From Bilabrum cf. latius (Eukaryota), in NCBI GenBank assembly GCA_965178125.1, contig OZ237743.1, positions 248,001-312,000 on the forward strand: DNA of 64,000 nucleotides, read 5' to 3'. Numbering within the stretch: the stretch's first letter is position 1; each line of letters opens with the position of its first letter. A program made the position numbers and the translations under genes. A model generated the notes under the pieces. That model did not search any database, had not been told where the DNA came from, and saw only the letters and a list, made by a program, of their open reading frames with translations. Below, piece after piece: positions 1-64,000 of the stretch.

Positions 1-537
1 TTTTTGATTCATGGAATTCCCACGTTTTGGTTGCAGGGAAATCGAGCGATGAAGCAGGCGCTGCAACGATCCAAGGATTGGATGATGCTGCTCTTACCGG
101 GCCCAATTTCTACTGCAATCATCAGTGCCGTTATCATGTTTTTTGCTAGGTTCAGAGAGCCGGGTTGGCTCGATTACACTGGATGGGCAATGAATGTTGG
201 GCTGCTGTGCCTGACCCTCTGGCAAGGGTGGGAAGCAGCCAAGGACTCAAACAAAGACAAGCGCGACAAGTCATTCAATTCGATTATTGGGCAGGTTGCT
301 GCCGGGTGCGGTGCGTTTTTGATCGCTATGTTCACGCAGTTGGGCTGGCTGCTCATTCTGGTCATGGTTGGGGAGCATGCGTATGAGTTGTATCTCGCAT
401 TGGCCCCCTTGCTTGGGGCCATGCAATAGGCTGGTACGGCTGCCTCAAGCGGTGAAGATGGCGGAGACGACGCCGGGAAAGGCAGCGGTGGACGCAAGCC
501 TGGCAAGAAAGCCAGGGGGAGCAAGAAAAACCGATGA
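1..537 (+). CDS. 3' part of a small multi-pass membrane protein with a basic C-terminal tail ending SKKNR (KKxx-like ER retrieval signal); 5' end outside the window
   Basis: ORF 4..429 has several hydrophobic segments. Reading TAG 427-429 through adds AGTAASSGEDGGDDAGKGSGGRKPGKKARGSKKNR to TGA 535-537, followed by AT-rich sequence. Confidence 0.65.
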
Positions 538-623
538 CTCTGAATTTCCATGCACTTGCAGACAAACAATGTATCATTTTATCAATTTTTGCATTGTTCT
601 GCGGCCACTGAATGTGGCTTACA

Positions 624-3600
624 TCAAGATCCAACCCCTCGCCCTGTGGAAGCTGCCCTGGCCAGCCGAAGTCGCTTGGATCGCCTCGGGAGCGTTGCAG
701 GGACCAGCCCACGTCCTGCAGCATCACCGTTCTGGCCGCGAGCCAAAGGTTGGGATTGAAGTTGGCAGTCTGCCTTGCCTTGCGCTCCACCGCGCACCAC
801 TCCTTGCGTCGCCGGCATGGTGCCTGCTGCATCGTCCAGAGCAGGCGAGCAGGTCCCAAGCACCTCATCAATATGAAGATCCACAGCACGGTCTGCAAAC
901 AATGCCTCGGGACTACTTGTAGCATCAGTTTCTCTTGCAGGTGGAGACACGGGCCGACTCCGCTTGTGCCCAGCCAATTGCCTGCCTGGTTGCCGGCATG
1001 ACGACCTGGCAGCCACGGCGGACGCATCGATTTTGGATCGAATGTGATTATCCTATGCGCCTTGCTCAGCATTAGATATCGACCCAGTAGGTGCGCTAAT
1101 GCCAAGCCTCTCAGATTCTTGGCTGTGCTGCAGCGGTGCACTGTACCCTGCGCTCTGCTGTGTCGCTGCCCATGTGGATGCGACCGCCTGCAAGGTCTAC
1201 TTGTGCACCGACCGGCTGACCGAAATATGCTGACACACTTGCTCGGTACCAACATCAGGTCGCAGCAATGGTGCTTGCAAGCCCTTGTGCCATGCAGGTG
1301 AGCCTCTGGTGACTGCACCGCTCGGTAATGGAGGAACAGCCGGAGTACGCATGGCACCGGCAATTCCAGACTGCTACTGCTGCTGGGCCTGCAACTGGCG
1401 CTGCTCATGTACTCCCAATGTGTGCGCTACATATTGCGATCTAGGTTGCCCGATCACCTCGCTACGCATGACCAGGCCATAGGACGCAGAGATCGACATG
1501 GAATATCCCGTGTTAGTGGTACGCTTAGCTGGAGTGGAACCGCGTGCAGTGGCAACCACGGCTGCATTGTGCAGGCGTAAGGGTTCGACCTGCACACCGG
1601 AAACTCTAGCAGCTTGCATGCTAGATGCTGGCGCAGACGCGTGCAGATGGTCCTAGGACGAGGCGACGGCAGAATGTGTGGCCAAGTCGACCGAGTTGCT
1701 GCCAACACCATCATCTCTCGACTGAGCTCCAAAGGGCGAATGCGACCGCTGCGGCCGGGTGATTCTCTGCGCTGGGGTGATCCTGTTTCCATCAGTGCCA
1801 CCAGTCCGTTGTCCCCCCCCACCCTCGATGCCGTCTTTGGCCATGGCACCGAACGCCACGAGAGCTTCTCCAGCGTCCACCCGCTGCCTGGCCCTCGCTG
1901 TCTTCTCGTGGGATCGGCGGCGGTGCGACCCCGTGCGCATTCTCGGAACCGTCCTGCCTACGCGACGCAGGTGTTGCAGCACGTTCGGATGCACGTCCAT
2001 ACCCATGTTGAGGCCTCTGCGACGACCACCAACAGCGACACGAGAAGGGCCGTGGCGCGGCGGACCAGCGCTGCGGTCGGTGCCTGTCACGAGCCCGAAA
2101 GGGGAGACACTCCTTCGGAGGTCGGCAGAGCCACCCAGGCCAGTTAGATGACCTCCGGCGGCCACTTGCTTTTGTTCGATGGCGGCAGCTGCAGACAATC
2201 CCACTACGACAGCCAGTCTAGTCTGCGTCGGCGACACGAAGTTCACGGTGTCTGTCCCGCTGTTTCCAGCACCTACACTGCTTGTCTTTCGACTGGAGGC
2301 ACCGAGTGGGGGGCTCGCTATCTAGTGAGGCCTACTAGCGGCAAGGGACGCACGACCGTCCTAACTCGCCGAGCCATCGCCGTCCCGACGCTGGCCGTCG
2401 CGCCTGCCCATGCGAACCCTGTCGACCCATTGCACGTGCCGGCTCTGATGCCGCCTGCTGCTGCCCTACGCCTCTTCGCGGTACTGAATGGAGCTGGGCT
2501 ACGCTCCTTCGTTCAAGGCCACCACGGAGTCAGCAGGGCCGCTTTCCCCTCGCAGGCTAACTGGAGACTCCGCACCACCTGCAGCCGATCGTCCCGAAGT
2601 TGAAGATGCGGATCCGTCGTCGGCCGTGCCAGACGTTCCAGCTGTTGCTGCAGCTACCGATGCCGATCCATCTATGCTCCTTTGCGTTGGTGGCTGCACG
2701 CCCGTAAGCATTCCCTCATCTGCTGCAGGTGGCACCATGGTCGGTTTCGTTCGGGTTGGTCGCGTCGGTCCCACCGTCGATGCGCTCTTGTTGTGAGCCT
2801 GTTCCTCAAAATGAAGGTCACCATGATTCAGCAAGATGCTCCTTAACTTCAGGTCTAGCCTGTGCCGAGGCTTTCTTTGAATGAAATCGGGATAATCGAC
2901 CGAGAGCTGCTGCCAGATTCCTTCCGTTCGGCCTGAGAATCGCCTGCTGGGTATACCATAGCCGCGTCTGGAGCGTCGAAATCGCCTGTGCGATGCAACT
3001 GACGCACCCGATGTGCTATCATCCGTTCCTGGATCATCACTGGTCGCCCATCCCATGGACTGGCCGGCTGCCATCCCGCGGTAAGCGCGGCGCCCCGTGC
3101 CGACATTACGATGGGCCCTCGCACGTCTTCGATTCCGGCTGCTTCCGTCGCTGCCGGTGCCGCGAATAGATGAGCCACCTGACTGACTAGTGTCACTCAG
3201 CACACTCCCTGTCGTGCTGCCAACAGTGCCCACCACGCTAGCTTGCCCCCGCTAGTCAACTCGCCGACTTACTCCCCAAGGCTGACCGCCAGACACCGTG
3301 TCAGCAGCTCGTACCAAGTCAGGCTGCGAGATTCCCGCTGAACCATGGGACTGCAGCGCGTATGTGCTCCATTCTTTGCCACCAGTCCGCGAGGTCGGCG
3401 ACTGTAGCACTACTGTTGGCTGCTTGCGGTCTTCCATGCCGGCATTGGCACGGCTGCTGTGCGCGCTAACCGCTGAGCAAGCTGACTCGTATGCGGAGTC
3501 ATCGGGCTCGACCGCCCTACGCGGTGGGAGGGCGGGCCGATTGCGAGGAGCACTCGACTATGGCGCGGCGCCAGGTCGCTACAATGTCCTGGACCGGGCA

Positions 3601-6600
3601 CTTGATGTCGGCCTCGGACTTCCCGAGTCACCGCTCCGACTCACATCGGACATCTCGCTGTCAGTGCCCTCCGCGCTCGAGGAGCCCACAGAGGAGCGCC
3701 CAGACGATCTAGACACGACTGAGGCACGAGACCCTGCGGTTGAATTTGGAGCTAGGCTGTCTCGACCGCGCTGCAGGCTGCGCCCATCGCCACCGTCCGT
3801 CGTGTCACCACCCTCGCTCTGTCGACCCATGGACTCCGCATCCGCATCGGATCCGGAATCTGCTTCAGCGGTCGCTGGTTGCTGCCGAGCACTAGCCACA
3901 CGGGGCAGCATGGACGGCTAGGGCATGCCCGACGGCAATTGTCGCGGCCTAGCGTAGTTGCCGCTACTGCTCGGGGGTCCCATGACCTTGTGCTGCACGC
4001 GTGTACTGCTTGTGCCGCTCATTGCCTCACCTGAGGTGGTGAACCTCGCCTAAGACACCGTTGTGATAGACACAGCAGCGGGTGGTGACCTGCCTTCGTG
4101 CAAGCCCTGTTTAGGCCCTGCAGTTCCGAGGGGGTGGGGAGAGCTCGGGCGATCTCTAGCAGGGCGGACTGGCAGGTCACCGCCAACAGTGTCACCAGCA
4201 CCAGCACCAGCACCAGCACCAGCACCAGCACCAGCACCACACTCGTTCTCCAGCAACGAATCACTCTGTCTGGATGACTCGGGATTGCCTGCAGTACCAC
4301 TCGTGTCTTTGAAATTTCCAAGTAAATTGGGCTACCGCTAATCAGGTCGTTGCGCGTGCTAGCTGTTGGTTGGTCGGTCGCGGTTTGAGCCTGCCGACTG
4401 CACGCTGCTTGCGTACGACGGTGCAGTGGCATATCCGCTTCCTCCACTCGCAAGCCTGTCTAATTCTTGGCTATAAGGAGGAGCATGAGCCTCTCTAGAG
4501 ACAGCTCGCAAATCGATACCCAAGCTAACGACAGTTGCGTTTTGCGGCTGAATGGGTGCACTCCCCAGTTGCAGCGATGCATGTTCGATATCCGGTTGCC
4601 TTGCTTCTGACTGAATCGAATTGCCACTACTACTTGCTACATGCGCAGAGGCACCACTTGCTTGACGTCGTCGTGATCTCCGAGATTGGACCGCGGACTT
4701 CAATCTCAGTGGCCGGGGCATCTCGCGGTCTGCCTCCTCGGAGTCGTCGGAGGACTCCATCGGTCGCCCAGGCCATCCCAGTGACATTTGACCGTGCCTC
4801 ATTGATGATCTTGCCAAACTACTCAATAGATACTTCTCTCTAATCCGCCTGCGGTTCCTTTTCGATGCTGCACTCCCACTGCCGCTGCTGCTGCGACTGC
4901 GGCTGCCACTCCCACTGGCACTGACGCTCGCGCTGTGCTTCACGCCAAGGCTCGTGTCGCCGAACGCTGTCCCAGAATCTCGTCGATGGCCACCGTCAAG
5001 CGCCTCTTCTATCATAGGCTCAGAGGTGTGTGCATGTCCAAGCTGCTGATCATCATGGGTAATGTCAGCTTCTTCGTCTGATGCCACGCTGGAGTCCCCG
5101 CCCTCGGACTTGTGGCGCTTCCGACGGTTGCGAAGCAGCGAGGCCGCGTATCCATCCGATCCGTCCTGCAGATACCTCGCCCAATTCGGGTTATGGATGC
5201 GCATGTTAACATCTCTTAGTCGCCGCAGCCGTCTCGCGATCAAACCGGGGGTCCTTGGATTGCGCTCGGCTGCCACTACCGAAGGAGGAATGCTTGAAGC
5301 GTGTGCAGTAGCTTCCGTAGACACGTTCGTGACGGGCGCGTCGACTGTATCTCCGCCAGAAATCGTGACATGGCCGCCATGTATCTTCTTCAGCGGCGCA
5401 CGACTCGGTACACTGCTGGGCACTTGTAGGCCAGCAAGGTGAAATAGCTGTTCATCCTCCCGTGGAACATGAAGTGACGCAGAGCTGGGAAATGTTATTC
5501 CTGACAGGTGCTGCGTGTGACCTACGGACTCATTAGATGTCGCAGCGGTCCGCTGAGTGCCAACAGTACGTGAGCTCAATGGAGCATCTGCGAGCGAACG
5601 TTGCAGCGTTTCCACAGAGGCCGCACTGCGCTACTGCGACAGCAATGCCTCCGTTGCAGCCCCAATACCTGCCATGACTTTGTCGCGAGGTGGCCGTAGT
5701 CCGGCCACACTGGGATCTGTCGAGTCGCTGGCGCTGGCGCTGGCGCTGGCATGTGACGCCTCGCTTGACGAAGCACCCTACATGGCGTTCAACATCGGCC
5801 CAAACGGCCGAGGTGTTCCACCAGTGCTTCTTTCATTTCGAGAGTACTAGCGCGAGGCAATGGAACCGGGAATAGTGCACTTCTTTGATTCAGCTCCAGT
5901 TCGGCCCGCTGTTCTGATTTGACTCACTCCAGCCGAGGAGCTACCGTTATGGCCCCCGTTCCCAGTCGCCGTATCAATGCCTATTCTTACAGCTGACTCT
6001 GAATCGGACGGTGACAAAACTGCTGCATCAGACCTGACAGACAATGCTCTGCCAGCTGTAGCACGGCTGTAGCTCATGCTAGCAAGACCGGCTGATGATG
6101 CTGCAGAAGCGCGCAAATGCTCGGTCGTCATTGACCTGGACACGGAAGACGCATGACTCCACCCGAATTGGTATGAGCTGGGAGAAATTGGTCCGGCTTG
6201 TGACACGTATGGGTAATTTGGCTGCAGCATAGCCTCGGTTCCACTATGAAGACCTGCAGAGGCAGCCAAAAGTGGCACTCCCTCCGCCGATCGTCGCAAC
6301 GATGCTGAAGTGTCATCCTGCATCGGTGCAGATGGCAACACAGATGTGAGCAAGTCTTTCTGTGCGGCTGCCGCGATGGACCCAAGGTGCATAGATATGG
6401 CAAGCGGGGCCGAATGAGGCATCGTGTATCCCCTATGAACAAGCCACTGTGCTTGGAGCTGCTCGAGACCCAGCTGTGCCGAGCTGCTCACAGGTCGTGG
6501 CTAGTTGCGAGCAGTCGGGTCAATGGGCGGTCGAGCTTCTTCCGAAGGATGCAACGATGCTGACGAATACTGCTAGCCTGCTTGTCTCATGGAAACAATC

Positions 6601-7686
6601 GCTGGGGCTGGGGCATCCACGTGCGCTAGAGTCGAGTCAGCCGTGGATAACGCGTGCAGGGCCTCAGATGACGCTGCCGCTGAACTCCAGTTCCACTCTG
6701 CTCCTCGATCCGGGTAAGAATGCACAGCGTATTGTGGGACAGCAGGGATGCCGGCTGTTGGGTGCCGCAGCGGCTGTCCGCGCGGCGTGGCAGTCCCGCT
6801 TGGAGTGGACAACGGGGCACTGCTGCTGCTCCCGCTGCTCGCTGGCCGTGGTGCTGCTAGCATTTCTGCCGGGCCCCTCGCACTAGGTGCGATCACACCT
6901 GTCTGGTTTCTAGCTTGCATTTCCGCATCTGATGACGCGGGTGCCACTGGGCTTCGAACCTCCTGATTGGCCTGTGTGCAGTCGTAATCTGCACGTCCCG
7001 GCAACTTCGGTCTATGCCAGGTGCCTGCTAGTGGGGCGGGGCTGCTGGCTGAGCTCGTCGTTGGATGTGGTGGTGCAGCAGCACGCCCACGACTCCAGCT
7101 TATGGACGGTGTCGGCTAAGGTCTGCGCTGCAGAGCGCCTTGAGGGTGCCCACTTGCCAAGTTGAATGCGCGGCGAAGGCCGTCTTCCGAAAGCGTGACC
7201 ATCTGTGCCGGCGGGGCCTCCCAGCTCTCGTGAATCTTCCTTAGTCTTTCAATAGGGTGGCCAGAGCGCCGCGCTGACTGTTCCGGGGATAATCTGAGTT
7301 CACACACGATCACGTCGAAACCGGCGCTCTTGCCGACGGACCAGTAGTGCCGAAAGTGCTCTACCAACGCATTCACCTGGTCTACAACGACAAAGGTCGT
7401 TCGATGCTGCTCCACGGCTTTGGCAAACGCCCTCTGTGCTGCCCTCCGATACGCCTCCAACATGCTAGCATCAAACTTAAACACCCAGCGGGACTCCTCA
7501 GCTGAGCCACCTTTCTGCTCCACCAAGAAATAGTCGTTCAAACTGTGCAGCATTGGAGAAACAAAGCCTCTTGATATAGCCACTTGAAGCAGCAACTTGC
7601 CAAGCTCGGTCTTCCCTGCTCCAGGAAGGCCACGCAATATCACGCAAAGCGGCCGCCGGTTACCATCGGTCCCAAACATCTTCATG
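624..7686 (-). CDS. YLPM1/ZAP3-like P-loop nucleoside-kinase domain at the N-terminus followed by ~2100 aa of low-complexity sequence; the true 5' end may include further upstream exons
   Basis: Motifs VILRGLPGAGKT, SLNDYF, VVVDQVN..HF..YW....SAGFDV and WEAPP resemble the YLPM1 kinase-like domain. ORFs ending at 7116, 6573, 5847, 4359, 4050, 3579, 3252, 2499, 1653 and 1374 share one frame, separated only by TAG; the frame ends at TGA 624-626. Confidence 0.75.
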
Positions 7687-8179
7687 CTTGCGAATATCAG
7701 CGGTCTGCTGGATCTGCCGTCTACGTATAGATATATACGATCAATTTGTAATCTGGTCAGCAACACATGCCTAAAGTCTGCAAGATTGTTCTGCTGTTGC
7801 AGTTCTGGAAATAAACCAGAGATACTCAATAACTGCACGGAACAAATACGAACATGTTTTTCTCCTGGTGGGGGAGATGGACCCTTTATGGGCCCTAGCC
7901 ATAGCACATAGTGCTTTGGCTTTATTCTCCCTTCCTATGGGCTGGGAGAAGCCGACGCCTGGATTGGCATTGTCGGCTGCACCGGGTTCGGTGCCTGTGC
8001 TGGTTGAGCAGCACAGCCCTGTTCAGGCGTCCTGGAGTGTCGTCTGCGCAGCGGAAGAAGAGCTAAATAGCTCTCGATTCCACTCGAGATCCCTGCGGGG
8101 GCTGCGAAGTGGTTATGGCCCGTTCGCCGATGTGCGCGGGAAGGTCTACGACCAAACGGTCGGGAAGGTGTTTACCGCC

Positions 8180-9014: not shown

Positions 9015-12000
9015 ATGTCCGTATCAAACAAATTGTTGAAGGCCGCGGCTGAGGCATCTTCCAGCAGCCCGATGAGCTCCAAGCATGGTGCCATACTGGT
9101 CTCTGGGGGCAAGGTGGTTGCTGTTGGTGCCAACTCTAGACGTACATATGCCCGTGGTGAAGTTGTCTGCTCCGTAAGTTTTAAATTTCGTTTTTCCCCA
9201 CTCAGCTTGTCGTTTCGTGTCGAGGATGGTCACCTGTTCGCTTGCTGAATCGATATCGCAGGTCCACGCTGAGCTGGATGCCCTGTTGTCGCTCAAGATC
9301 AACGGTAAGGCGTGCCGTAGCGGGAAATAGACTGCTTTAAAGTATAAAATAGCCATGCGTAGCTACGTTGATACATTGGTCTCTCTCACTTTCGTCACGC
9401 AGGTCGCCCGCTACCGGACAGCTTGTTTGCACAGGCAGAGTTGGACTACGACAACGTATGGCCCGACTACAAGACGCAGGTGTTCGGAGACAACCGGGGT
9501 GCGCAAATATTTGAAGAACCAAGGGGTGGGAAGGTGTCGGGTCCTGCCGCGTCAGATGCGTCCGCGCTACCTTCGGAACAGCACGAGCACGCCGGCTGGG
9601 AGCGCGCTCTGATGCAGATCGACAGCGAGCAGAACCAGAGGCAGCGCGTCGAAGGGGCCGCAGCGAAATCCCGCAGAGGAGGACCCTCCTCCGCAGCTGC
9701 TGGCAGCGAGGAGCACCACCTGCTGCAGTCCTTCTTCGAGGCCCAGGAGGCAGGCGCCGTCACCGTGCCTGCTGCCTCCAGTAAGCATTCGGCCACTGCT
9801 GCTGCTGCTGCTGCTGCTGGTGGAGCGGTTGCTGGCTCCGGCGCTAGTGCCAGCCCCAGCAAGCGCACCGAAGGAGGATACAAGGTCGCAGGCCCTGAGC
9901 ATGCTGTCGATGGCGTGTCGATGCAGAAGAACCGACGCAAGAAGAAGAAGAAGAGGGGGAAGGCTGCCCCTGGCAGGGCCTTCCTCATGACACCCGAGCA
10001 GGAAGCTGCGTGGATCGTCCTCGCACCCCACGTGCCCCCCGCTCTTCCGGCACAGAAGCAAGCCCCTGCTGGTGGCTCAGGGGCGGCTGGTGCTTCTTCC
10101 GCTGTAGTACACCGCTCAGCCTAGAGCGACACATCCGCAGCCGTAGCTGCAGCTGTAGCTGTAGGTGGGGCAGGAGCAAGGACAGCCGATTCGGCCGTAG
10201 GTGGGGCCAATGCCTGGAAATCGGGAGACAGTTCGAAGAGAGTCCATCACCAGGGCGAGGATGAGGACGCAGTCGATGCAGGGCGGCCCGGCGGGCAGAG
10301 CGCCGGGCCGCCGTTGCATTTGCTGGGCCGGGGGTCAGAGCCGTGCTTTTTACCAGGCGAACCACGGCTAGAAGCTCTATTACCACGGCGACCGGCCCCG
10401 CGCCAAGGGTGGAGCGCGGGGGTCGGGCCGGTCGTCGTGGAACAAGGCGCGGCAGCAGCAGCAGCTGCAGGGGCTGGGGCAGTCGCTGGACGTGCGCTCC
10501 TCGAGAGCACTCATGCGGAGACTGACCGGTCTGGCAGAGCAACAGCAGAGCACTGGGAAGGGCCGAGGGCCGGGGGCCTCCGCTGCCGCTCGGTCCACCA
10601 GCGGATCCGTCCTTCCGGTCGCCTTCGCCGCGCTGGCGGGTGTGGGCACTCGGTACGGCCCAGCGGACGACGTGACCACGTAGGGGCTGTCTGCCGAAGA
10701 CGCGGTGCTGGAGGCAGAGGTGCGGGGAGCCAAAGGAAAGCCGGTGCGGCAGAGGAAGCTGCGGCGCTGGCAGCAGCAGGCCCAGAGGCGTGGGCCAGGC
10801 GGCGCTCTGCAGGCCGGGTGCAGCAGCAGCACAAAGCGGGACGGGGACAGCAGCGTGGGGGGTGCGTCCCGGTCGACTGGGTCAGGCGGCAGAGTGACCA
10901 CTGCCACACCGACCGCAACGCAGCCTGCAGGGCCGCCGTCGAGGCTCTCGCCCGATCCAGCCAAGCCATGCAATGGGTTCAACGGGCGCAAGGGCAGTTC
11001 CGAGGCGCGCTCCCGGCAGCCGCTGCGGGCCGAGAGTCGTGAGTCCGACGGTGCAGGCATGGCTGCCGAGGGATCCTATGGTGATGAGCGGCTGGCTGCC
11101 TCGACTCACCACGAGGCTGGACATGCGGCTACCGGCAGCGACACCACTGCGTCGCTGGAGTCGACTCCGGGCAAGGCTGCGGGTGCCGGTGCTGGCATCG
11201 CTGCAGAAGAAGACATCGAAGCTGCCCCTGCCGGAAGCGACGCTGAAGGCAGCGAGGGCGGAGCGTCTGGAAGCGACAGCGACAGCGATGAGCTGAAGGT
11301 TGGCACCGGCAGCATCGGTGAGCGGAGCCCAAGCCCCGCATCGAGCTGTAGTGGCGGGATTTCGCGGCCCGATGCAGCCAAGGAGGTGGGCTCTGGGGGC
11401 AGCAGCGTTGGCAGGGGCAGCAGCGCCAGCGATCGCAGTCGCAGCAGCGACGCTTTCTCATCGTGCCCATCACAGCCCAACTCTGCCTGCTCCGCTCCCG
11501 CCACCACCGGGCTCACCGCCGCGAGGCCAACCGGTGTCATCAGGCCGAGCAAGGCGGCTCGCGCCGCCGCCCGCAAGTAGCGCAAGGCAGCCAGGGCGGC
11601 CCGCAAGCTAGAGAGGGTGCGAGCAGCCGTCGAGCGCGCCAGGATCGCAGACAGCCTCGGGTCTGGGCAAGCCCACCGCGGATCAGGAGGCGGGGCCGGC
11701 TGCGGGCTCGGGCTCCGTCGGAGCAAGGCCAAGGGCAGCGCGACCTCCGTTGCGGGTGGCCCGGCCTCTGCGAGGGGGCACGGTCAGCCGTTTTTGCGAG
11801 CTGCGGGCGGCCGACGCGGCCGCAGGTGCGGGACGAGCGTGTCTGGCCTGTCCCTCGGCGACCTGGACCCCGGCGTGGGGGCGGGGGGATCCCCCTGGGG
11901 GACTCGCAGCAGCGGGGGTGACAGCGGCAGCTTTGGGGGGGCGGAGGACGCTGGGTCGGATGGTTTCCCCGGGGATTCCTTCGGCGGAGAGGGTCCCGGT

Positions 12001-13212: not shown

Positions 13213-13329
13213 TTACAAAGATAAAATTTCGATACAAGTTATAAATGCCTTCAATCCAGTTCGGTTCCGGTCTGCGTGCAGCAGCTGGGGATGACGTTGG
13301 CCACACATTGCCTTCGCCTCGCTAAATTG

Positions 13330-31495: not shown

Positions 31496-31600
31496 GCGGC
31501 AGGAGCAGAAGGCATCGCTGCACGCTGTGAAGAATGCGTGGAATAAGTACCCTGCACGTTGTCAGGTGCTGAGATGGCGAGGAACGCATACTATAGTGAT

Positions 31601-33194: not shown

Positions 33195-33324
33195 GCTGGT
33201 TTAGCATGCAACTACCTGCGTCTTAGAAAATTTCATCAGCATTAAGGTAAATGAGGCATATTGTGGACGATTGCGGCGATCGGAGCCCTGACATCACCCG
33301 CTGGACGCATCTATTCGGTTCACG

Positions 33325-43892: not shown

Positions 43893-44264
43893 GGCTTCCT
43901 GGCAGTATTTATATCCAGTATTGACTGCTGATACGCAGCCAGCCAGGTGGCTGCCGACGTCAGAATGACAGGGAATACGAGCTTTACTATGCACGCCCTT
44001 TTCTTGTGTACCTGTTCGACGGTCAGTTCTGATTCGCTCCAACTCAACCCTGTATCTAGAAAGGCTTTAGTTGTGGATGCTGCAGTCGAAACAGTATCGA
44101 TGAAACTGACAACGCGTCGGTGAGATCGATCCACTCTGGTCCGGTTCAGGCTGTTTTCATCTTCACACCTTGAAGGTGCTGGGCCTGGCGTGGCAGCCAC
44201 GCTTACTTGGAACATCAGCTTCACAGGAAGCAACCAGGCCACGCGCAACCGACCACATCCCTCC

Positions 44265-51300: not shown

Positions 51301-54300
51301 CCGCGAGGTAGTCAGGCACGATGGCGCTGCCGCCCCCGGTGAGGGCACCATCCTAAGGCCGCATGACAGACGGCGGGCTCGGACCGCCCCTTCCAGCTGC
51401 TGAGTCAGCAGCACCCAAGCGAGAAGCGCCTACGGCACGCCGGATCGCACCAGCTCCAATCCCAGCTGGCTGCCTCTTGCTGCCTTTGTTGCCCTTAGGG
51501 ACCATTAGGGCCATAACGAAGCCAAGGCTAATTCCGGTCTTTGTCACCCGCCTGCTGAGACGCCGCAGCGAGGCTTTGCCGCCCTTGTTGGAAGGCAGTG
51601 CAGGCGGCTGTACCCGCTGTTTGCTCAAAGGCTGCGGCGGTTGTGCACTCGAATCCTCTTCGCGTTTCTTCCTGGCTGGCGTACTGGGGCTGGCCTTGCC
51701 GTCGATCTCGCCATTCCCGACACTTGCACTTGAAGCTTCATCCTCACCGTGGACTGCCGCGGTTTCCGCTCCGTCGTGCTCCTCGTCTTCTTCGATACTC
51801 TACTGCGCAGCACCAGCATCTTCAGCTGGTGCAGCAGCTGCTTGTCGCGCGCTGGAGAGAAGTATTTCCGTGCTGTCCACATGGGCAGACTCGTCCGCGG
51901 CATTTTCCGCGACCTGCAGCCCGAATCGATGCATTGCATCCCCGAGCGCAAGAGCCTGCCCCACCGCCTCGAGTTCCGCCTTCGTGTGCGGGGACATCGG
52001 CTCTGTCACACTCGCGTTCTCTTGCTCCTGCTGCAAAACACGAGATACAGCCGGATGCGTTCCATCCGGACGCGGGTCTTTGCCCACGCTGCCACCGCTT
52101 CCGTGGTCATTGCCACTCTATGCCTTGGCGCTGGATGATGCAGCCCCGCCGCCCGCGGTCTTTGCCTTGGCAGGCACCTGCACCGGAATGCGTATGCTAG
52201 ACGGCACGCTCCCGCTTGCACCCGCGCCCTGCCCGGTTTGGCTGGCAGATGTCTTGGCGCCGCCGCTTGCAGCAGCACGCAGGCCGTTGCGCGCGCCCCG
52301 CAGCCCCGGTGGACGGAAGCCGAGGGCTGCCCATGGGTCGAGCCACTTGATAAATTCCTGCTGGTCGGCAGCTATACCAATCACCAGTGAGGACGGCTGC
52401 AGAACTGCCTTTGGCATGCCCACGGCTAGGAAGTACCGTGAGTCCTTTCCGGCTGCTGCTTGCATGCCCGCAGGAGCAGACTCCGGCTCGCCAGACCCCC
52501 CTGCCCCGCTAGCCGCAAACATGAACTGTGCCCCTTGCAGCAGCCAGTTGGCCTGGTGGCCTGCTCCCTGCGCGCCCTTGCTCCCTGGATTCCCATCCCG
52601 CGCCATTCCGCTCGTCCTTGCCTGGCTCCGTGCCAGCATCTGGCGCATCGCTGATTCCACACGGTTGAAATCAACGCCGGGAGCCGTGTCCCGGCAGTCC
52701 TACACTGCGGCTCGCACCAGCTGCTGCAGGTCCGTGTTGGACGCCTGGGCCTGCAACTAAAGCAGCCTGCTGAGCGCCTCACATGTCGTGGTGACCTCCC
52801 TGGCACCTTTGCGCAATTCACGCAGGGCTTTGTGCCTCCACCTGCGCCTGGCGGCCCCGCCCTCCGGTGGACCGTCTTCCACCTCCTCACTTGCTTGCTT
52901 GCGCAACTCATCCAGGCCAGGCTCCTCCTCCCCTTCACAGGCTAGCCGTACGGCACACGGCCCGCCCCCGGCAACGAACACCTCAACGGCCCGCTCGAGG
53001 CGGCGACTGACCGTTGCTGCGAGCACAGCAAAGTGGGCCGCGTGAGCGGCAGCGACCTGGCTGGGCTTCGCCTTCGTCCGCGGGATTACAGCTCCGATGA
53101 TCTGCACCGTGCCGTTGGAAGCAGTGCCAACGGCTGCAGAAAGGTCCCCGACGGTCATCTGACGAGCAATGGCAAAACTGGGCGCCGCGGACGAGTAAAT
53201 TTCCTGGGAGGCCCCAGATTTGTACTCCATGGCCCATGGGCGATCCATGGCAGTGATGGAGTCTGCCCGCGACACGATGAGATTCGTGAGCAGGGCGGGA
53301 AGACCGGGCACTCCCACGGAGCAACCCAGCATGGAGTAGTCGATCGAGTCGATCGGCACGCAGTTGTTCGGCGAAACACCGCAGCCCTGCGCGAATTTGA
53401 GGGAGCTGATCGTTCGAAGCATTACGACGAATCGAGGGATGGTCGGCCGGTGCTGCTGCCTGGAGCCAAATGCCTCCTCGGCAACGTCGGCCATGCCGTC
53501 ATCATCCTCATCGTCGTCATCGTACTGCAGTCCCGTGCCGAGTCTTCGCCTATCCTCTGGGCCCTGATGCCGCCCGCAGCATGCACAGCAGAAAACGTAG
53601 TCTAGACAGACTCGCATAGGCTTAAACATGCCGCCTATTTCGGAGCAAAAGGCTCCAGCCTGCGAGTACACCCGATTCATCGTCGTGTCACTCTGCTACA
53701 AGCCCGCCCGAATGGCATCTTCCTGCAGCAGGTAGTGTCGCATGCGGAGAAGAGCCAGGAGGTTCGAGCGGTCCTCGGCCGGACCATCTTCGGCGGCACG
53801 GGAGGGCAGCACCACAACCTGCTCTGCGTGCGCCACGGCAGCCCTGTCGACGTCGTTCTCTGAGGTGGCTGCGCCCACGATGAGGAAGAGCCTGTCCTTG
53901 TAGTGCTCGGCATCGGTGTGCTTGCCCTTGCCACGGAGAAAATCAGCGACGTCCGAGGAGGGGGTGCCTAAGAAGACCGTGTCTCGGTTGCAGTTGTCCG
54001 AGTTGTCGGGATGGTACAGCTCCCTCAGAAACTGCTTCAACTGCTCGAGCGAGGGGTCTCCCATGACCACGATGTGGGGCTGTGCTTCGGGCCCGCTGCT
54101 GTCCTCGGCGTCCTTGCCCCCGGCACCCCCTGGCCTGCAGTAGCAGCAGAGAGACGACTGGAGTGCCGAATCGTCGTCCTCCTGCAGCAGCGCGTTCTTC
54201 TGAATGGACGCCTTGGGCAAGTACACGGAGGGGCTGCTGGTCTTCAGGTTCAGGATAGCCACAAACTCGCTGGTGGCAGAGGCAAACGCCGCCAGCCCCA

Positions 54301-56147
54301 AGAAGATAAAGATAACGATCACAAGCCTCGAGACCGTGTGGTTGGGAGAGTAGTCGCCATAGCCCACGGTGGACAGCGATATGATCACGAAGTAGAACGA
54401 CACAAAAGGACTCAAGACCTCGTCCTCGCACCGGCCATCCACGGCCACAAACGAGTAGGCACCGTCATCGCACCGGTACAGAGTCCATAGGGCAGAGGGC
54501 ACGGTGGAGTCGATGGGGAGCTCACCGAGGAGTTCAAGCACGTACACGGTGGTGCTGATCACGTAGAGTGCGGCGAACGTGTTGATGCCAAAGGCCGTGA
54601 TCCTCCAAGTCGCTGACCGGACCCACTCCTCCCCTCGAGCCTCGGCCGCGGCCGCTGCGTTGCCGTCCAATGGGTCAAGCTCTACGGGGCTGTCCAGGCT
54701 CTCCGCATTCCGCAGCACATCCAGCTCCTCCTCGTCCTCCAGCGTGTAGCAGACCACGCAGCAGTATCGAGCCACGTATTGCACCCAACAGCTGCTAGGC
54801 CCTTCTCCAGAGCCGCCGTCTTCCTCGTTAGTTCCCTCTGCCTTGCCCCACTGCTGGGCGGGGCGACTCTTTGCAGAGCTCCCTGCGCCTGTTCCGCTCG
54901 GCGGTGCGGTTGCGACGAGCGAAGAGACTTGCTGCACGCCCGCCCCGACTGGCTTGGACGACGTGCCCGTGCCTACTGAGCTGGCTACCCCGCTGCTTAC
55001 GGTGCTGGGCTTGCCCTGCCCAGCGTCCGCCCGATCGGCCAGCTCTTTGGCCGCCTTGTCGGAGTCCCTTGCCACGCTGATGGCTTCCTGCTCGCGCCTG
55101 TCGGTCTTGATCGCCTCGTCGACCGCCTGCTTAGAGACGACGCAGCAGCAGGTGAGAGTTTCCGGGGGATGCACTCCGCACAGCCCCCCGCCGCACAGGC
55201 CGTCGTCTGTGGCCGGCGGCTTCCTGCGGATGATCTGCTCGATGACCGTGACGAGCTCGCGCATGTAGAGGGCTCTGACGAACGCGAGAGAGAACCATGT
55301 GCGACTCGCAACAAACGGAATGCTTCCACCATCGACCTCGTCCGGTGGGAGGCAGCGCTGGTCCGCGACGCTCCAGAGGCTCAAATCCCCGACGTCTTCG
55401 GGCCGATCTCCGGCAGCTTGGCCGATGTACTCGGTCGAATCCCCCGTCGAATCCAGCAAGGACCACGCGCACACGCTTTGGACCTGTATAAAGAAGCTTC
55501 CAATAGTGAGTACGTCGATAATAGTTCCAAGGTGCACCATTGCGTCGAGCTTCGGGCGCTCGGCGAATCGAACTATCAAATTCACTGCAAATAGGAGCAC
55601 GCACACAAAGTGCACCCACATCTCCCACTAGCTAATCGAAAATGAGCTACCCTCTACCGTTAGCAATACACAAACGACCTGCGGAAAAACCGAAGAGACA
55701 TGGAGAGAGCGGATAGCTGAGGGTTCAGAGGAAGATAGCTGGCAACTCAGCCGTAACTGATTGAATACTCACGGTCGAGGGAACATTCTGAAGCATGATG
55801 CGCAGAAGATTTGCCATGAGTGGATGCCTACTGTATGCCCCGGTCACTTGTTTCTGCAAAGCCTGGTCTGCTTCGCGTACGCATCGACATAAGGGTCGGC
55901 ATAGGCAGTCATAGAGTGCGACTGCTGGGATCAGCGCAGCAATCGCGAAGACAGTAACAAAAAGTTGATAAAATACAAAGTCCCACGAGAGCACGCAAGC
56001 AACGCCATCGAGCACTGAGTTTCCACAGAACTTGGCCAGAGGGTTGCTCTCAAAGAAAGACGGCAGATTCTCTTCAGCGCCAGGGATCCCACTCGATTCA
56101 TTGGACGGAAGATCTTCCAGCAGGTAAACTCGAAGAAAATCTTGCAT
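45395..56147 (-). CDS. Very large (~3550 aa) BK/Slo-type potassium channel with RCK domains and long insertions; intron 55679-55772
   Basis: Pore FYFVIISLSTVGYGDYSP, S4-like WFSLAFVRAL, RCK segments HIVVMG, FLRELYHP, VGVPGLPALLTNL, EYKSGASQEIY, GTPYDPMDLGRAGV and RALPYVYTSPP. One frame with 20 TAG and no TAA/TGA until TGA 45395-45397. Confidence 0.88.
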
Positions 56148-56447: not shown

Positions 56448-59400
56448 TCAAAGCTCAACTGCAATCCCTGTTTCCTCGCCCTTGGCCTGCACGTCCATCA
56501 TCATCGCGTCGCTCTCCCAGAAGGCTCCAGTGACCCACATCTCCTTGAGGCCCGCCCTGCTCCAAGCCGGCATGTTCTGCTCCAAGATCGCACCGTGGAT
56601 CCAGGAATGAGACACGTCCAAGAACCGGAGCTGCTCCAACGGGGATCCGAGCCGCCTCCACACGATCCCAGAGCACGGGGGGCTGCTGCTGCCAGCGCCT
56701 CCAGAGGTCGGCCCGCAGGGACTGCTGCTGCCCCCCTACAGAGCAGCAACGGCAGCAGCCGCCCCTTGCATCTTGCCCATGGATGATCCCCTGTAGCCTC
56801 GTTCGCTCACTTCCGGCCTGCAATCTGCTGGTACCCCGCTGCCCGACAGCATGCCTCGCCTAACCCGCCGTGTTGGCGCTTCGATGATATCGCTGCTGCT
56901 TGACCCCTCCACCGCCCCGCTCTCTTCCGTGGGTCTCTTCTCCCTTGATCTACCCGTCGCACCTGGTTGAGCCCCGGCCCCATCCATTGCCGTTGAGGCA
57001 TTCCCCCCTACCCCTACCACCGGCGATCCGCCCGTCCTGCTTCGCACCCTGCGGCCAGGCAGGAGCTCCTGCGGCACGGCTCCCTTGAGCAGAAAGCACC
57101 TCTGCAGGATATGCATGGTTCGGCTGGAGAGCTGCTGCAGCGGGGGCTTGCGCGCCAGGGCTTGGTCGAGGGCGGGCACAGGCTGCGTGCAGGAGACATC
57201 GTCCATGAATCCATCGGTGGATTGAGCGATCGCACTCCTGGTCCTGGGCTTATCAAGGACCGAGAAATCGAGGGATCGAGCGGCGGGCAGCCTGCCAGCC
57301 CCGACCCTGCGCACGCCAAACCTCGATGCAGCGACGTGTTTCAGTTGCTTTCCTGCCGGGCGAGCTGGATCCTGTCCCGTGCCAATGCCAACTGCATGCT
57401 GCTGCGTTGCGTGGCCGGCAGCATTTCCATCCTCTGCGTCGTCCTCCTCTTCCTCCTCGAGGCTTGCCATGCTGGCCTGGCCCGCCCCTGACTCCGCGCC
57501 TGACGATGCCTGCGACCTTGGGCTGAAGAACAGCCGCTGCACCGAGCTGCCAGGCAAACCATCCGACGCGCGCGACGCATGCCCCAGCGTGAGACCTGTG
57601 CCCGACCCAGAGGACGAGACTCTGTCCTGACCCTAGCCGTCCCTCCTCGCCTGGGAGCCAGCGCCTGAGCTAGCATTCGATCGCGTGCTCCGCCTTGTTC
57701 GGGTCCTTCCAGACGCCGCCGGGTGCGTGGACAGCGGGGTAGGCGCGAAGGCCGATAGCCCCGCCAGACCGGGACCGGGGCCGAGTGATGATCCGTCCGC
57801 AGTTGCAGAGGACGATGAGGATGAGGCGGCAGATGAGGACGAAGAGGACGACTGCAGAAGAGCACCCGCAGCATAGCTATTCGCTGGACCGGTCGACGGA
57901 GCAGCCGACATTGGGAGCGACGGCGGCACGGCTTGCGGCACGCTGCCGGCGCTCGCTGGGGCAGTGGAGCCCGGGCTCATGGTCGCAGCCGGGCTCCCGA
58001 ATGGCAGCTGCGCCCACCCGCCATGCCCCCCACCACGAGCACGCAATCCGCCGGGGTGCTGTATCCCAGTCCCGAGGCCAGCTGATGGGCCTGGTACAGC
58101 TGCACCGGTGTCTAATTCGCTCATCCGAGCGAGCCCGCTGAGCCCGGCATGCGGCCCCATGGCTTGCCCACGGCTGCGGCCGGCACCGTCCTCGTCCTCG
58201 TCTCCGTCCTCCATGGGAACCGAAGCGGGGCGTTTCTGATTGTACTGACGAGCGCGCGGATGGCTCGTGGTTGAAGCCAGCTGGCCCGGCGCAGATCGGC
58301 GGCCACCTGCCGTAGCCCAAGCACCCATTTCATCCTCGCCGGCCTCTTGCACCCTGCGAATCCTCGCAGCGTTGGGACCCCCTGAGGACTGAACAGCGTC
58401 TGTGTCCACGCGGCACAGCAGCGTCCTGCCGTCAGACCCGAGCACGATCGACACGCCGGGCGAAACGACCACACCCCCCTCGCCCGCGCCCTCACACGCG
58501 CGCCTCACCTCTGCCCTGGCCTGAGCGGCGGCAGTGGCAGCCCCAGTCAGCTGGGTAAACACCTGCCCAGACACCTCGCAGTGTGACAGCCGCAGCCGCT
58601 GCAAAGCCGGCAGAGACCCGATGGCATCCAGAAACCGCCGAGAGCTCTTGCGCCCGATCAAGTTGTTCCCCAGGTCGAGCCGCTGCACCCCCCGCAGGGG
58701 TGCCAGGAGCCGCACCAGCCCGCTCAGCGAGTGCATCGTCAGCCGATTCCCCGCAATGTCCAGCTCCTCCAGCATGCCAGCGCTACCGGCCTGCAGCGCA
58801 GCATTCAGCACGATGGCAAGCCCCTCCATGCCCGCCCCGCAGTACCTGAGCCCAAGCTCGCGCAGGTGCGGGGCCCTCTGCAGCAGGAGCGCCAGGCACC
58901 TGGCCGCGCTGCCGTCCAGTGCTATCCCGTTGATGCGGACTTCGCGCAGCCGGCTGGTGTTCACTGTGTCTGCCATCGTGGCGAGAAGCTGCCTCAAGGA
59001 AACCGCTTCAGTCTCTGCGTCGCGGTGCGGGCTCCGCCTGCCCGCCCTGGCGCTGCTCGGACTTGAGCTGCTCCCAAACGCGACCTGACCGCGCGGCTCT
59101 GAAAACTCAGCAGATGCGTAGGCGCCCATGCCTGCGACGATGTGTTCAATGAGTGGAAGGCGGGGATGCGGGCTAGAGAATCGGCGGGCAATGTTGCAAT
59201 GGCCGATTCTGGATTGACAACACGCGAACGCGCGGGCCCAGCGCGAATAGCCACCAGATGTCAGAAGAGCAACGATCGCAATGTGAGCGTCGTCGACGTA
59301 ATCTCTATGCACAAAAGTCGGAGGCAAATACGAGAGCAAATGGAGGCCTCACCGCGGATACGAATAAAACGGGGGCTGAGTGGTCTCTGCCGGGACCGCA

Positions 59401-60617: not shown

Positions 60618-60786
60618 TTTGGTTGATATGTACCTGTTCATTCGGCGCGTCGCTCTGCGCTGGACCGCCGGCGTGGATACTCCCTGGCAATTGTAGCGTG
60701 CGAACCGGAATGCAACCGAAACGTACGTGACGCGCGTACGCGCACGCCACCGATGATACATTTCACTAGCAGCCGAAACGGGGAGG

Positions 60787-63468
60787 ATGTCGCTGTATGC
60801 CGCAAAATCGGGCAACGTTGACTCTCTCAAGACAGCGCTTGCTGGGGGTGCAGATCCCAACTGCAAAGATGTCGAGGATGACAAATCGCGTCAAATCCTT
60901 GCAGTAGCTGCCTCCCGCGGTCACACTGAAGTGGTTCGAGAATTGATCAAGGCAGGTGCCAATGTACATGCAACATCAGACTTACGCGAGTGGTCCGGCT
61001 GGACCTACGAGCTGTGGTACGGCTCTTGCACAGCTCTTCACGAAGCTGCCAGAAAAGGCAGGACGGAGTGCGCGATAGCTCTTTTAGAAGCAGGCGCAAG
61101 CAAGGAAGTAAGGAATTAGCAGCGTCAAACGCCATACGATTTGGCGCGGGCAGAGGGCCATCGTAAAACTGCGGATGCCATAAGAGCCTTCGATCCGGTT
61201 GCACACTAGAAAAAGCAAGCCGAGGAGGTCGCAAGACAACAGCACGATGCCAAAATGAGAGAAGAGAGAGCTCACCGACAGCTTGCAGAAAAAGAAAGAC
61301 AGCTCGAAGCTCAGGCGCAAGAGATCGCGAAACTGAGGGCAATGGCAGCGGAATCGAGCCACTCGGAGGCCACAAAGAGAGCCGCTTTTGATGAGGCTGC
61401 AGATCCCGTAGAGGCGGAAAAGGCAGCAGCTGTCCCATCCATGGCCATTTCAGTCCATGTGGACCATGGCGGGTAGACAACCAGCGCCCATGGGCCTGAG
61501 ATTCCTTGGAGCTCAGAGCACCAGACAGTCGTGTAGTCCGTGGTAGCTTCTCACGATGCAGCCGTTCGCAGCGCGGAACTCTCTTCGATCGAGGGCGGCG
61601 ACTGGTTCGCGGATCTCAGCGGCAAGGTTAGATTCGTCGCGGGCGGTCAGGGGCGGATCGATCTATCAACTGTGCTTGCCCCCGATATGCTCGAAGGCTC
61701 GGTGCTTGGCGGCAAGGCAAAGATCGTTCCGGCAGGCATAGGCAATCGAAGGCCGGGGCCAGCCGTTAGCTTTGCGCCCGGGACGCTCCCAAGCGAGGCC
61801 TCTATGTCTAGCATTGAAGCAGGCCGTATCCCCCCTCTCAACCTGCCCGGTGGCAAGGGCGGGGTGGGACAGGGGGTGAACGGCTTCGTGTTCGCCGTGG
61901 AGTTGCAACCAAGGGAGAAGAGCAAACCTCCAGCGCAGGTGGCCCTGAAAGGGCTGTTGCCTGTAGTTTCGGCCAGCCAGTACTACTCGTCTGTCTTGCG
62001 AGCCGGCCACCAGGAGGAGTGGCGGGTGCCAAGAGTCGTTGGAGCGCATCCAAACATCGTGGCAGTGAGGCACTCCTTCTTTGGTAGCTCCATGGCTTTG
62101 GTTCCATGGGCAGGCGATTTTCTCATGTTTGGAGCTGTGGCGCGACGCACTACCTGGCTCGTCATGCCATTGTATCCCACCAGTCTGTAGTCCAGTACGA
62201 AGAAAGTGCCTTGTTCTGGCCAGCGGGAGGCTGCGCTTTGGTTGCTGCAAGCGCTGCAAGCAACTCAGCACATGTTTCGCCGGGGGGCCGTCCATCGTGA
62301 CATCAAGGCAGACAACTTTTTCCTAGCAGGGGATGGTCGTCTGGTGCTGGGCGATTTCGGGGCGGGCTGCCTTCTTTTCTACGGTGGACGAGCAGACGCG
62401 TTGGAGCTAGAGTACCAGGAGCACCAGAGAGAGCAGGCGCTGGACCACGCAGCTGCAACGGGGGCAGGATCTGTGGCTTTCGATGAAGCCGGCAGGACAG
62501 AGAGTGGCGGTGCCGAGGAAGCGGTGAGTGAAAGTGCATCAGATGGCACTGCAGCAGAGGCGGAAGAACAGGCGTTGCCGGAAGTTTTCGAAGGTGCTGG
62601 AGAGGACGCCCTAGAGTTTCCATTCATGGTCTCTGTCACGAATTCTGGCGGCGCGTGGGACTGCCGAGCGCCTGAGCTGGTTGCAATGGGGCAACGGACG
62701 CGACCGCTGAAGAAGGATTCGCACGGAAGGCCGCTCCGGACCTTGTCACAAGCCTACGAGATGGCGGATGCATGGGCCGCAGCAAAAACTGTGTGGATGC
62801 TCCTTGCCAGCTCAGATTCTGCACAAACCTTTCCTAGCTCAGCGAAGCTGTACCGAAGCGAGGAGCTGCCAGCGCTTCCGAGCGCAGGACGGCAGCTTGA
62901 GGCGATCCTTCGCGGGCTCCTGCAATCCAGGCCGAGCAATAGGCTTCGTCCAGAGGACGCAATCAGCGCACTGAAAGCTTTTCTCTACGGTCCAGGCACA
63001 CTGAAAGGCGTGGAGAGAGCCGCAGCGCCGGTTAGTTCCGTTCATACAGGTGTACTTTTGGCGCAACATGCCTCTGTACCGGCGGCCTCGGGTGCGGGTG
63101 CAGACAGCAGCGTCGGTGGTGCGCCAGATACGGCCTGGATGGTAGAGGAGGTTGAAGCACAGCTGCAGCTTTGCGCTGCTTTGGATGGCCCCGCAGGTAC
63201 CCATCGGGACGGTGCATCCAAGAGCATATGGTGGGGACTGGCCGGGCAGGCACGGTTTCTGCGGCTGCCCATAGGTGAGGATGCATACGACGCTTTTGGC
63301 TGGGGTGCGGCTCGGTGTGTCGACGGTGAGTCGAGCCTGTGGGACCGACAGATGAGGCGACAAACCCTGCTCAGAGGAGCGTGTCCCGCAGAGTCAGCAG
63401 CCGCTTTATCCAAGGACTGCAAGCAGCTGCTGGATGTCATCCGCAGGTATGCTCTTGGTGACTCGTGA
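60787..63468 (+). CDS. Ankyrin-repeat + coiled-coil + PINK1-like Ser/Thr protein kinase
   Basis: Ankyrin motifs (TALHEAARKG, TPYDLA). Kinase motifs GQGVNGFV, VALK, HPNIV, HRDIKADN, DFG, APE, ADAWA. One frame with TAG at 61117, 61207, 61474, 61534, 62188; TGA 63466-63468. Confidence 0.88.
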
Positions 63469-63756
63469 GTAACCAAGAGAACAACATGTCTAGTCCACTG
63501 AATAAAGCTTGACCTGAAGAGCGCAGCCTCGACAGGCTTGCGACAAGGCCGGCAAATATTGCATCATTCCATCGGACTCCAGCATGCTATCTGAGAAAGT
63601 TACTGGCATCAATGCTCTATGGCATACAGTTCGGTCATTCGTTGCCGGGAACCCATACAGAGTGGTGACCTAGAGTAGCACTGGAGCCAAACGTCCACGC
63701 TCGGCCTACTAGACATTCGTGAGGCAATCCGGGGTCGGTAAACTTGTCCAATGCCG

Positions 63757-64000
63757 TCATTGCCGGCGGCGGCAGTCGCCACAAAACCGTAGCGCAACAG
63801 AATTTCGAATCGACATGCCAAGGACAAGGAGCGACGAGGAAGAGACAGGGGCTGCACCCGTCCCACTGCCACCAGCAGCACCTACACCTGAAGAGGCGCC
63901 TTCGCTGCATCCATCATGCCCTGCAAGTGCCTCGCGAATCCCATGTGCAAGCGCTCTCGCTTCCTGACCCGCCATGCCACCGCCACCCGGCACTGCCTCG
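63757..64000 (-). CDS. Probable C-terminal end of a gene running in from beyond the window
   Basis: Gly/Ala-rich open frame from the window edge to TGA 63757, convergent with the kinase gene. Confidence 0.4.
   Translation of the reverse strand, partial: EAVPGGGGMAGQEARALAHGIREALAGHDGCSEGASSGVGAAGGSGTGAAPVSSSSLLVLGMSIRNSVALRFCGDCRRRQ

Follow-up and report, generated by a model that had tools for sequence, protein, structure and literature searches.

The stretch examined here, a 64,000-base window of contig OZ237743.1 (positions 248,001 to 312,000), raises one question: what does the codon UAG mean in the organism that carries it? Under the standard code, almost every gene of the window organism and of its relatives is cut into fragments, and an earlier reading made from the letters of the window (the sequence-only reading) had proposed that UAG encodes glutamine (Gln) throughout. 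We found that the window is very probably nuclear DNA of a GC-rich, intron-bearing eukaryote in which UAG has changed from a stop to Gln, translation stops at UGA and UAA is not read as sense. The reading of UAG as Gln is supported for the window and for two relatives.

Open frames and spliced contigs

The window contains no N, and its GC content is 55-65% in each 4-kb bin and about 60% overall. We compared stop-to-stop frames under the standard code with those obtained when TAG, TAA or TGA was read as sense. The longest frames under the standard code were 1396, 643 and 623 residues, whereas reading TAG as sense gave frames of 3457, 2515, 2265, 1748, 1290, 1073, 966 and 903 residues. Reading TAA as sense left the longest frames at 1396, 643 and 623 residues, and reading TGA as sense gave at most 918 residues besides the unchanged 1396, despite TGA being about twice as frequent as TAG (on the plus strand, 809 TGA, 425 TAG and 187 TAA). 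When 40 simulated windows (first-order Markov) were read with TAG as sense, the longest frame was 418 residues on average and 561 residues at maximum.

Codon counts were based on 14 long TAG-sense frames comprising 16,851 codons. These frames harbor 97 in-frame TAGs, of which more than 60 had been reported by the sequence-only reading, and neither TAA nor TGA, both zero because of the way the frames were built. Over the same stretches, the two off-frames contained 252 TAG, 81 TAA and 547 TGA. In-frame TAG density was about three quarters of the off-frame density, and TAA and TGA were fully avoided across thousands of codons. The base following an in-frame TAG was C in 34 cases, G in 27, T in 18 and A in 18. 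About seven of the 97 TAGs are possibly non-coding. One is at residue 2 of a multicopy paralog, parA, and lies in an intron; the other six (10105-10369) are the first of the eight TAGs in a 1073-residue frame (9991..13212, plus strand; TGA end, no Pfam family) and may be outside the true frame, as an overlapping frame at 10105-10369 looks more protein-like than the TAG-carrying one. We regard UAG as almost certainly a sense codon.

Public sequencing runs X4-X7 were compared, as contigs, with positions 22501-42500 of the window. Runs X1-X4 come from organism A and are DNA-like; X5 and X7 come from organism B and X6 from organism C, and X5-X7 share 0.74-0.84 of sampled words. The compared region includes a gene for a mitochondrial-type EF-Ts of 394 residues (33292..34476, plus strand), with TAGs at 33535-33537 (residue 82) and 33706-33708 (residue 139) and a TGA end. 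It also includes a gene for a ubiquitin hydrolase of the USP family on the same strand. The 5' part of the USP gene (34868..35338) has GT..AG introns at 34868-34968, 35028-35143 and 35250-35338, with exons at 34969-35027 and 35144-35249; its large last frame (35327..42124, coding from 35339; PF00443, E=1.6e-22) contains TAGs at 36560, 37064, 41255 and 41300 and ends at TGA.

Contigs of X5, X6 and X7 carry the joints 34867>34969, 35027>35144 and 35249>35339 in the USP gene, and the three skipped stretches, of 101, 116 and 89 nucleotides (nt), are all GT..AG. The DNA run X4 shows none of the three joints, and its contig spans the region unspliced. Two further joints, 28857>28945 (GT..AG) and 30455>30568 (CT..AC, a minus-strand intron), were each present in two of the three runs. 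Because of these intron-skipping joints, we take X5-X7 to be cDNA. X5 record 13 (35339-40958) and X6 record 19 (35339-38561) keep TAGs 36560 and 37064 with 0 differences and 0 gaps, and TAGs 41255 and 41300 are covered by X5 record 14, X6 record 20 and X7 record 28. EF-Ts TAGs 33535 and 33706 are covered by contigs of X5, X6 and X7 with 0 differences. Across X5-X7, all six TAGs of EF-Ts and USP are covered with 0 differences, as are two in the multicopy parA. The DNA run X4 and three other runs match the window letters at the TAG sites.

Since the TAGs stand unchanged in intron-skipping contigs, editing of UAG to CAG and removal by splicing are excluded, as far as the contigs show. The sequence-only reading had asked whether UAG is kept in mature mRNA, and the spliced contigs of X5-X7 answer that it is. 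It should be mentioned that these window-identical contigs (0 differences, up to 5.6 kb) come from two organism codes and from two studies other than those of the DNA runs. The organism may have been sequenced together with another one (for example its host or prey, or a partner in co-culture) or may be filed under that one's name.

The default explanation under the standard code would be that the TAGs are untranslated: lesions of pseudogenes, errors of assembly or sequencing, RNA-edited sites or small introns. We found no supporting evidence for it. Only one of the three stops interrupts the genes (97 TAG, 0 TAA, 0 TGA). The window letters at these sites recur in X4 (DNA) and in three other runs, and the spliced contigs keep the TAGs. 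TAG positions are common to relatives, and a 63%-identical relative has in-frame TAGs of its own. The sequence-only reading had also stated that read-through of TAG gives full-length proteins that are free of other lesions and end at TGA; indeed, no frameshifts were found, single frames are open over up to 10.4 kb, and all 14 frames end at TGA. Untranslated TAGs are thus left with next to no probability.

The residue at UAG and the ends of genes

The EF-Ts protein gave the deepest alignment. It matches PF00889 (E=2e-45, residues 120-373) and has an N-terminal extension with a weak match to the N-domain of mitochondrial EF-Ts; both TAGs lie inside Pfam-matched parts. Columns were counted in an alignment of the best 120 of 5785 homolog matches. 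At residue 139, the column consisted of Q in 115 sequences, R in 4 and K in 1. A PDB alignment against E. coli, with too few sequences for a verdict, shows E and Q at the two TAGs.

Further sites came from close relatives, whose proteins in the public collection come from standard-code gene prediction and are hence fragments. The query with a BK/Slo-type K+ channel of 3457 residues (45395..55768, minus strand; PF22614, PF07885 and PF03493; 20 in-frame TAGs, TGA end) found six relative proteins. Among these, P0247 (98% identical) has Q at channel residue 691, P0246 (91% identical) has Q at residue 2112, and P0248 (from a JGI metagenome, 64% identical) has Q at residues 2112 and 2373. For a 2515-residue low-complexity protein (624..8171, minus strand; 23 in-frame TAGs, TGA end), a representative search with its residues 1270-2375 found four relative proteins, with Q at residue 1891 in P0252 and at residue 1937 in P0254. 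P0255 was left out, because it is 41% identical and of low complexity (A and D in poor context); a second alignment, of 24% identity (R, M, S, S), was treated as noise.

The JGI metagenome contig behind P0248, L001, was the only contig found by a single-protein scan. It has 4048 nt and 63% GC, and its frame 1 runs unbroken through the whole contig (1349 codons), with six TAGs and neither TAA nor TGA. The translation is identical to the channel at 805 of 1284 residues (63%). At six sites, 11 or more of the 21 flanking residues agree, and each of these sites pairs TAG with CAG. In four of them, TAGs of the window channel (residues 2112, 2373, 2598 and 2681) face CAG in L001; in the other two, TAGs at L001 codons 1131 and 1134 face CAG in the window channel (block RYGF-VA-RPRYD). 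Nine L001-channel sites in poor context (at most 6 of 21), showing M, A, P, a gap, L, S, D, P and E, were left uncounted. Ortholog sites in general were counted at a local identity of at least 11/21 (13/16 in one case), and nine of the ten sites so obtained are Gln and one is Leu.

Within the window, the multicopy paralogs parA (29051..30466, minus strand; five TAGs, the first, at 30463, in the intron 30456-30567) and parB (31601..33040, minus strand; two TAGs) belong to the same family and are identical at 324 of 471 aligned residues, with one TAG in common (residue 161/155). Besides this single TAG-TAG pair, TAG is paired once each with CAG, CAA and TTG, so that two of the three counted paralog sites are Gln and one is Leu. 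The pairs TAG/GCT (in a variable stretch) and TAG/ATG (the intron TAG) were not counted. Together with the two deep EF-Ts columns (one Gln, one Glu/Asp), there are 15 well-aligned TAG sites, of which 12 are Gln and three are other residues (Leu at two, Glu/Asp at one, Ser at none).

The codon context is in line with these counts. A polyglutamine run of the channel, with two consecutive TAGs at 50386-50391, reads CAG CAG CAA CAG CAG CAG TAG TAG CAA CAG CAA, and another TAG directly follows CAG CAG CAG. The sequence-only reading had based Gln on polyglutamine context, paralog alignment and a conserved EF-Ts position. Fragment ends of the relatives' proteins add to the picture, as the public protein collection already contains fragments that end exactly at TAG positions. 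Of seven scorable ends, three lie just before window TAGs (channel residues 2373 and 2532, and residue 2173 of the 2515-residue protein), three at window CAG, CAG and CAA, and one at TAC. That the stop ending the fragment is TAG was demonstrated for P0248, via L001, and is inferred for the fragments from the Logan assemblies.

Several points weigh against this reading of the window. Three of the 15 well-aligned sites are not Gln: P0254 has L at residue 1950 of the 2515-residue protein, the TAG at parA residue 423 pairs with TTG in the paralog, and the EF-Ts column at residue 82 (in the same best 120 of 5785 homologs) consists of E 95, D 20, Q 3, G 1 and A 1. A change between TAG and CAG is a transition, the commonest class of change, so that close-ortholog pairs alone favor CAG somewhat; the deep EF-Ts column is the sole site that is fully independent of mutation. 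Runs X5-X7 were only guessed to be RNA, X5 was flagged as 'probably DNA', and contigs drop rare variants. No tRNA gene was found within the 64-kb window, and the scope is 64 kb of one organism plus 4 kb of a relative. Finally, that UAA is still a stop is an assumption, with none of the 14 frames ending at TAA.

The non-Gln sites bear on the alternative that UAG is sense but stands for Leu, Glu or Ser, or is decoded ambiguously. Two well-aligned sites pair TAG with Leu, Glu or Asp occupies 115 of 120 sequences at EF-Ts residue 82, and nuclear codes with UAG as Leu and UAG as Ser have been reported (PMC11687900; here and below, statements from the literature follow the accessible parts of the cited papers). 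Yet the majority of 12 among 15 points to Gln, Ser is absent, the column at EF-Ts residue 139 has no L, E or S, and two consecutive TAGs sit within a polyglutamine run. Gln alone fits most of the sites, and in the Leu and Glu cases Gln has been replaced by a single-step or conservative change. We consider another residue to have only a slim chance and predict, with high confidence, that UAG stands for Gln.

We then have to consider whether UAA shares this meaning. Gln codons in the 14 frames were CAG 505, CAA 187 and TAG 97, and TAG accounts for 12% of them (97/789). If UAA and UAG were both Gln, as in the NCBI table 6 codes of ciliates, dasycladaceans and hexamitids, TAA could have escaped notice by being too rare in 64 kb of GC-rich DNA. 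Reassignment of both codons to Gln is the commonest nuclear stop reassignment and occurred in several lineages (PMC11687900, PMC5304391); moreover, TAA terminates none of the 14 frames and is the rarest of the stop trinucleotides on the plus strand (187 against 425 TAG). On the other hand, the CAA/CAG ratio predicts about 36 in-frame TAAs, whereas none was found and no gene is split by TAA, at an off-frame density of about 40 TAAs per frame over the same stretches. No long frames are joined up when TAA is allowed as sense, and L001 has six TAGs and no TAA in its 1349 codons. Because of this shortfall, the lack of merged frames and the absence of TAA from L001, TAA is quite probably not a sense codon, and a code with both codons as Gln is very unlikely.

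As to termination, all 14 frames end at TGA and none at TAA; open reading frames of at least 120 residues that end at TAA are almost all in other frames of the main genes. A delta-14 sterol reductase gene (ERG4/ERG24) has a TAG-free last exon (13841..14890, plus strand) that matches PF01222 (E=1e-110) from profile position 114 to 432; its TGA falls where this 432-position family profile ends. Of the 14 terminal TGAs, 8 are followed by T, 3 by A, 2 by G and 1 by C, and the sequence becomes AT-richer right past the stop. This TGAT bias and the turn to AT-rich sequence may reflect a preferred context of termination.

UAG might also have a dual, context-dependent meaning, Gln internally and stop at some gene ends, in the style of Condylostoma, karyorelicts or Blastocrithidia. 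Since TAG counted as sense in delimiting our frames, a terminal TAG would have been read through to the next TGA and missed. Ambiguous codes do exist in other organisms, and one candidate of this kind is present: in the C-terminal exon of an SDR/epimerase-type reductase (22689..23738, minus strand; PF01370, E=2e-8; TGA end), a TAG stands 18 codons ahead of TGA. However, similarity continues past the last TAGs in the tail of parA and parB, and in the BK channel after residue 2681 to the end of L001. TAG is also common, at 97 of 789 Gln codons, and is followed by all four bases. A dual meaning is unlikely in comparison with UAG as Gln throughout.

Genes of the window and their relatives

The sequence-only reading had placed TAGs inside conserved domains of EF-Ts, USP, SDR, a kinase and a K+ channel. 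This was borne out for EF-Ts (both TAGs), for two of the four TAGs of the SDR reductase and for one in the kinase, but not for USP and the K+ channel, in which the TAGs lie beside the Pfam matches. The four SDR TAGs are at residues 9, 67, 205 and 331; two of them are within the domain match, and PDB alignments cross those at residues 67 and 205, both in variable columns. An ankyrin-repeat protein kinase (60757..63468, plus strand; Ank_2, E=4e-17; Pkinase, E=1e-10; TGA end) has five TAGs, one within the kinase domain and one within the ankyrin part. In USP, the TAGs at residues 412 and 580 lie past the Pfam-matched stretch (51-387); by reading of the translation, they would be within an insert ahead of the last block of the catalytic domain. 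In the K+ channel, the TAGs at residues 47 and 691 stand on either side of the pore and RCK matches and not within them.

The TAG-free 1396-residue part of USP (37067-41254, plus strand) gave only leads to a ubiquitin-like tail of the USP7/USP47/USP40 type, with language-model scores of 0.77-0.85 and no clue to the taxonomy, and a weak UBL_USP40 Pfam match agrees with them. The BK/Slo channel forms one unbroken frame of 3457 codons with the pore and RCK parts in the first ~870 residues, and its long tail is partly conserved, being common to the 63%-identical metagenome relative.

Three further frames on the minus strand end at TGA. One of 1748 residues (15173..20419; 11 in-frame TAGs) has hydrophobic stretches and no known family, one of 1290 residues (24259..28131; nine TAGs) resembles APP1_cat only weakly, short of the Pfam cut-off, and one of 966 residues (56448..59348; two TAGs) has sub-threshold leucine-rich-repeat matches. 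A C2H2 zinc-finger array protein (42330..44066, minus strand; TGA end) carries its two TAGs in the N-terminal part and consists of about 13 near-identical 28-residue units with the consensus HLGERKHEC.VCGKSFG.AG.LR.H.RTV; the repeat itself accounts for the long open frames that overlap this array on the opposite strand or out of frame. Introns in the window are 87-116 nt, and single exons reach 10 kb. No rRNA or other Rfam family was found at gathering score within the 64-kb window. DNA depth in X4 rises above its baseline of about 44x in two places, reaching 350-2180 between 28.5 and 33.2 kb and about 5700 between 41.8 and 42.5 kb, with many variant letters. Because of this rise, the tandem paralogs and the start of the zinc-finger gene are assigned to high-copy families or repeats.

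The lineage of the window organism was approached through two proteins. The three best matches of EF-Ts were 44-48% identical, and its nearest named relatives were alphaproteobacterial. The ERG24 exon has much closer relatives, P0126 in the Logan assemblies (96% identical) and P0127 in a JGI metagenome (69%), followed by matches of about 50% identity in chytrids, Paramoeba, Thecamonas, diatoms and a green alga. For a single-gene tree of 46 sequences (IQ-TREE), we chose 45 of the 120 listed matches: those with an organism name, both relatives and part of the EukProt or unnamed entries. The query grouped with P0126, P0127 and an ENA protein in a separate, supported clade (99/95) within a polytomy; no bicosoecid sequence was in the set. 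The sampled fungi, diatoms, green algae, apusomonads and choanoflagellates all fell outside this clade, and the single-gene ERG24 tree leaves it unplaced. A single gene does not suffice to place a eukaryote, and this one speaks neither for nor against the bicosoecid stramenopile that the sequence-only reading had suggested. For fragments of the relative's orthologs of the 2515-residue protein (P0252) and of the sterol reductase (P0126), the longest contig on record has 16,947 nt in both cases, which suggests that the two genes share a contig and have kept the gene order of window positions 624-14890.

The aphelid Amoeboaphelidium was considered as a candidate and was rejected with fair confidence, as its GC content is 40.5%/39.9% (PMC10608142) against about 60% here and TAA is not sense in the window. 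Annotated proteins of Amoeboaphelidium were not among the 120 listed ERG24 matches, and the query was not joined to the sampled fungal-side groups of the tree.

An independent and undescribed origin of the code is plausible, though we would put it somewhat short of even. More specifically, and tentatively, an undescribed clade that is GC-rich, mitochondriate and not ciliate may have acquired UAG as Gln independently of Iotanema and of the ciliates, with UGA as its sole working terminator and UAA neither sense nor detectably a stop, which would set it apart from every UAG-only code described so far. As part of the same tentative proposal, this clade would have at least three visible members: the window organism, the ~96% relative from the read assemblies and the 63-69% relative from an environmental metagenome. 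Among the open-access papers and bioRxiv preprints searched, we found no description of a GC-rich non-ciliate with UAG as Gln.

Comparison with known codes

UAG and UAA nearly always change meaning together, and few nuclear lineages uncouple them (PMC11687900, PMC5304391). The described cases are UAA-dominant and mostly AT-rich, and a GC-rich, UGA-terminating case would, if true, be an independent data point. It would be informative for the choice between codon-capture and ambiguous-intermediate models, and for the question of how eRF1 can give up UAG and yet keep UGA. At the practical level, the assembly needs annotation with TAG as Gln.

UAG as Gln with UAA not reassigned has been reported for Iotanema, Protocruzia tuzeti and two phyllopharyngean lineages, while UAG is Ser in the green alga Scotinosphaera and Leu in the uncultured rhizarian exLh (PMC11687900). 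The sequence-only reading had named a fornicate, a rhizarian and phyllopharyngean ciliates as UAG-only cases; its list was incomplete, as Protocruzia tuzeti and Scotinosphaera were missing (PMC11687900).

Iotanema spirale resembles the window in that UAG alone is reassigned, to Gln, and in-frame UAGs occur widely among conserved genes (PMC5304391). The mechanism proposed for it may be the same as here: a tRNA-Gln with anticodon CUA, derived from tRNA-Gln(CUG) by a single anticodon change, would decode UAG and not UAA, and the N-domain of eRF1 would have lost recognition of UAG and kept that of UGA (PMC5304391). The eRF1 of Iotanema carries a T32G change (PMC5304391). Termination differs, as UAA is kept and is the dominant stop in Iotanema (PMC5304391), in contrast to UGA at 14 of 14 ends and no UAA here. 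The two also appear to differ in their mitochondria. Fornicates are not known to have mitochondrial translation, whereas the window encodes a mitochondrial-type EF-Ts with an N-terminal extension. From this protein we infer mitochondrial translation in the window organism. Stop usage and the mitochondrial-type EF-Ts would together argue against membership in Iotanema.

The phyllopharyngeans and Protocruzia share with the window UAG alone as Gln and at least one UAG in most genes (PMC11687900). Phyllopharyngeans have 27.4-53.6% GC, with UAA the commonest and UGA the rarest stop (PMC11687900), unlike the ~60% GC and the exclusive use of UGA at the 14 ends of the window. GC content and stop usage may thus argue, weakly, against membership in the phyllopharyngean ciliates.

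The codon table itself has precedents. NCBI table 15 was originally the Blepharisma table. Genetic code 15 (TAG as Gln) is used in crAss-like phages (PMC9523058); the codon table is the same, but the window is eukaryotic nuclear DNA with spliceosomal introns. Ulvophytes, hexamitid diplomonads, Streblomastix and Amoeboaphelidium protococcarum, in which UAA and UAG are both Gln, are like the window in the use of Gln and of UGA as terminator (PMC11687900, PMC5304391, PMC6299283). They differ in that TAA is Gln as well, in contrast to no in-frame TAA here against about 36 expected. The codes of exLh (Leu) and Scotinosphaera (Ser) likewise uncouple UAG from UAA (PMC11687900), but the residue differs, with Gln at 12 of 15 sites here, Leu at two and Ser at none. 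The code variant of the window is thus a known one, while its lineage and setting may be new: high GC content, UGA at every end, no use of UAA and at least two relatives alike.

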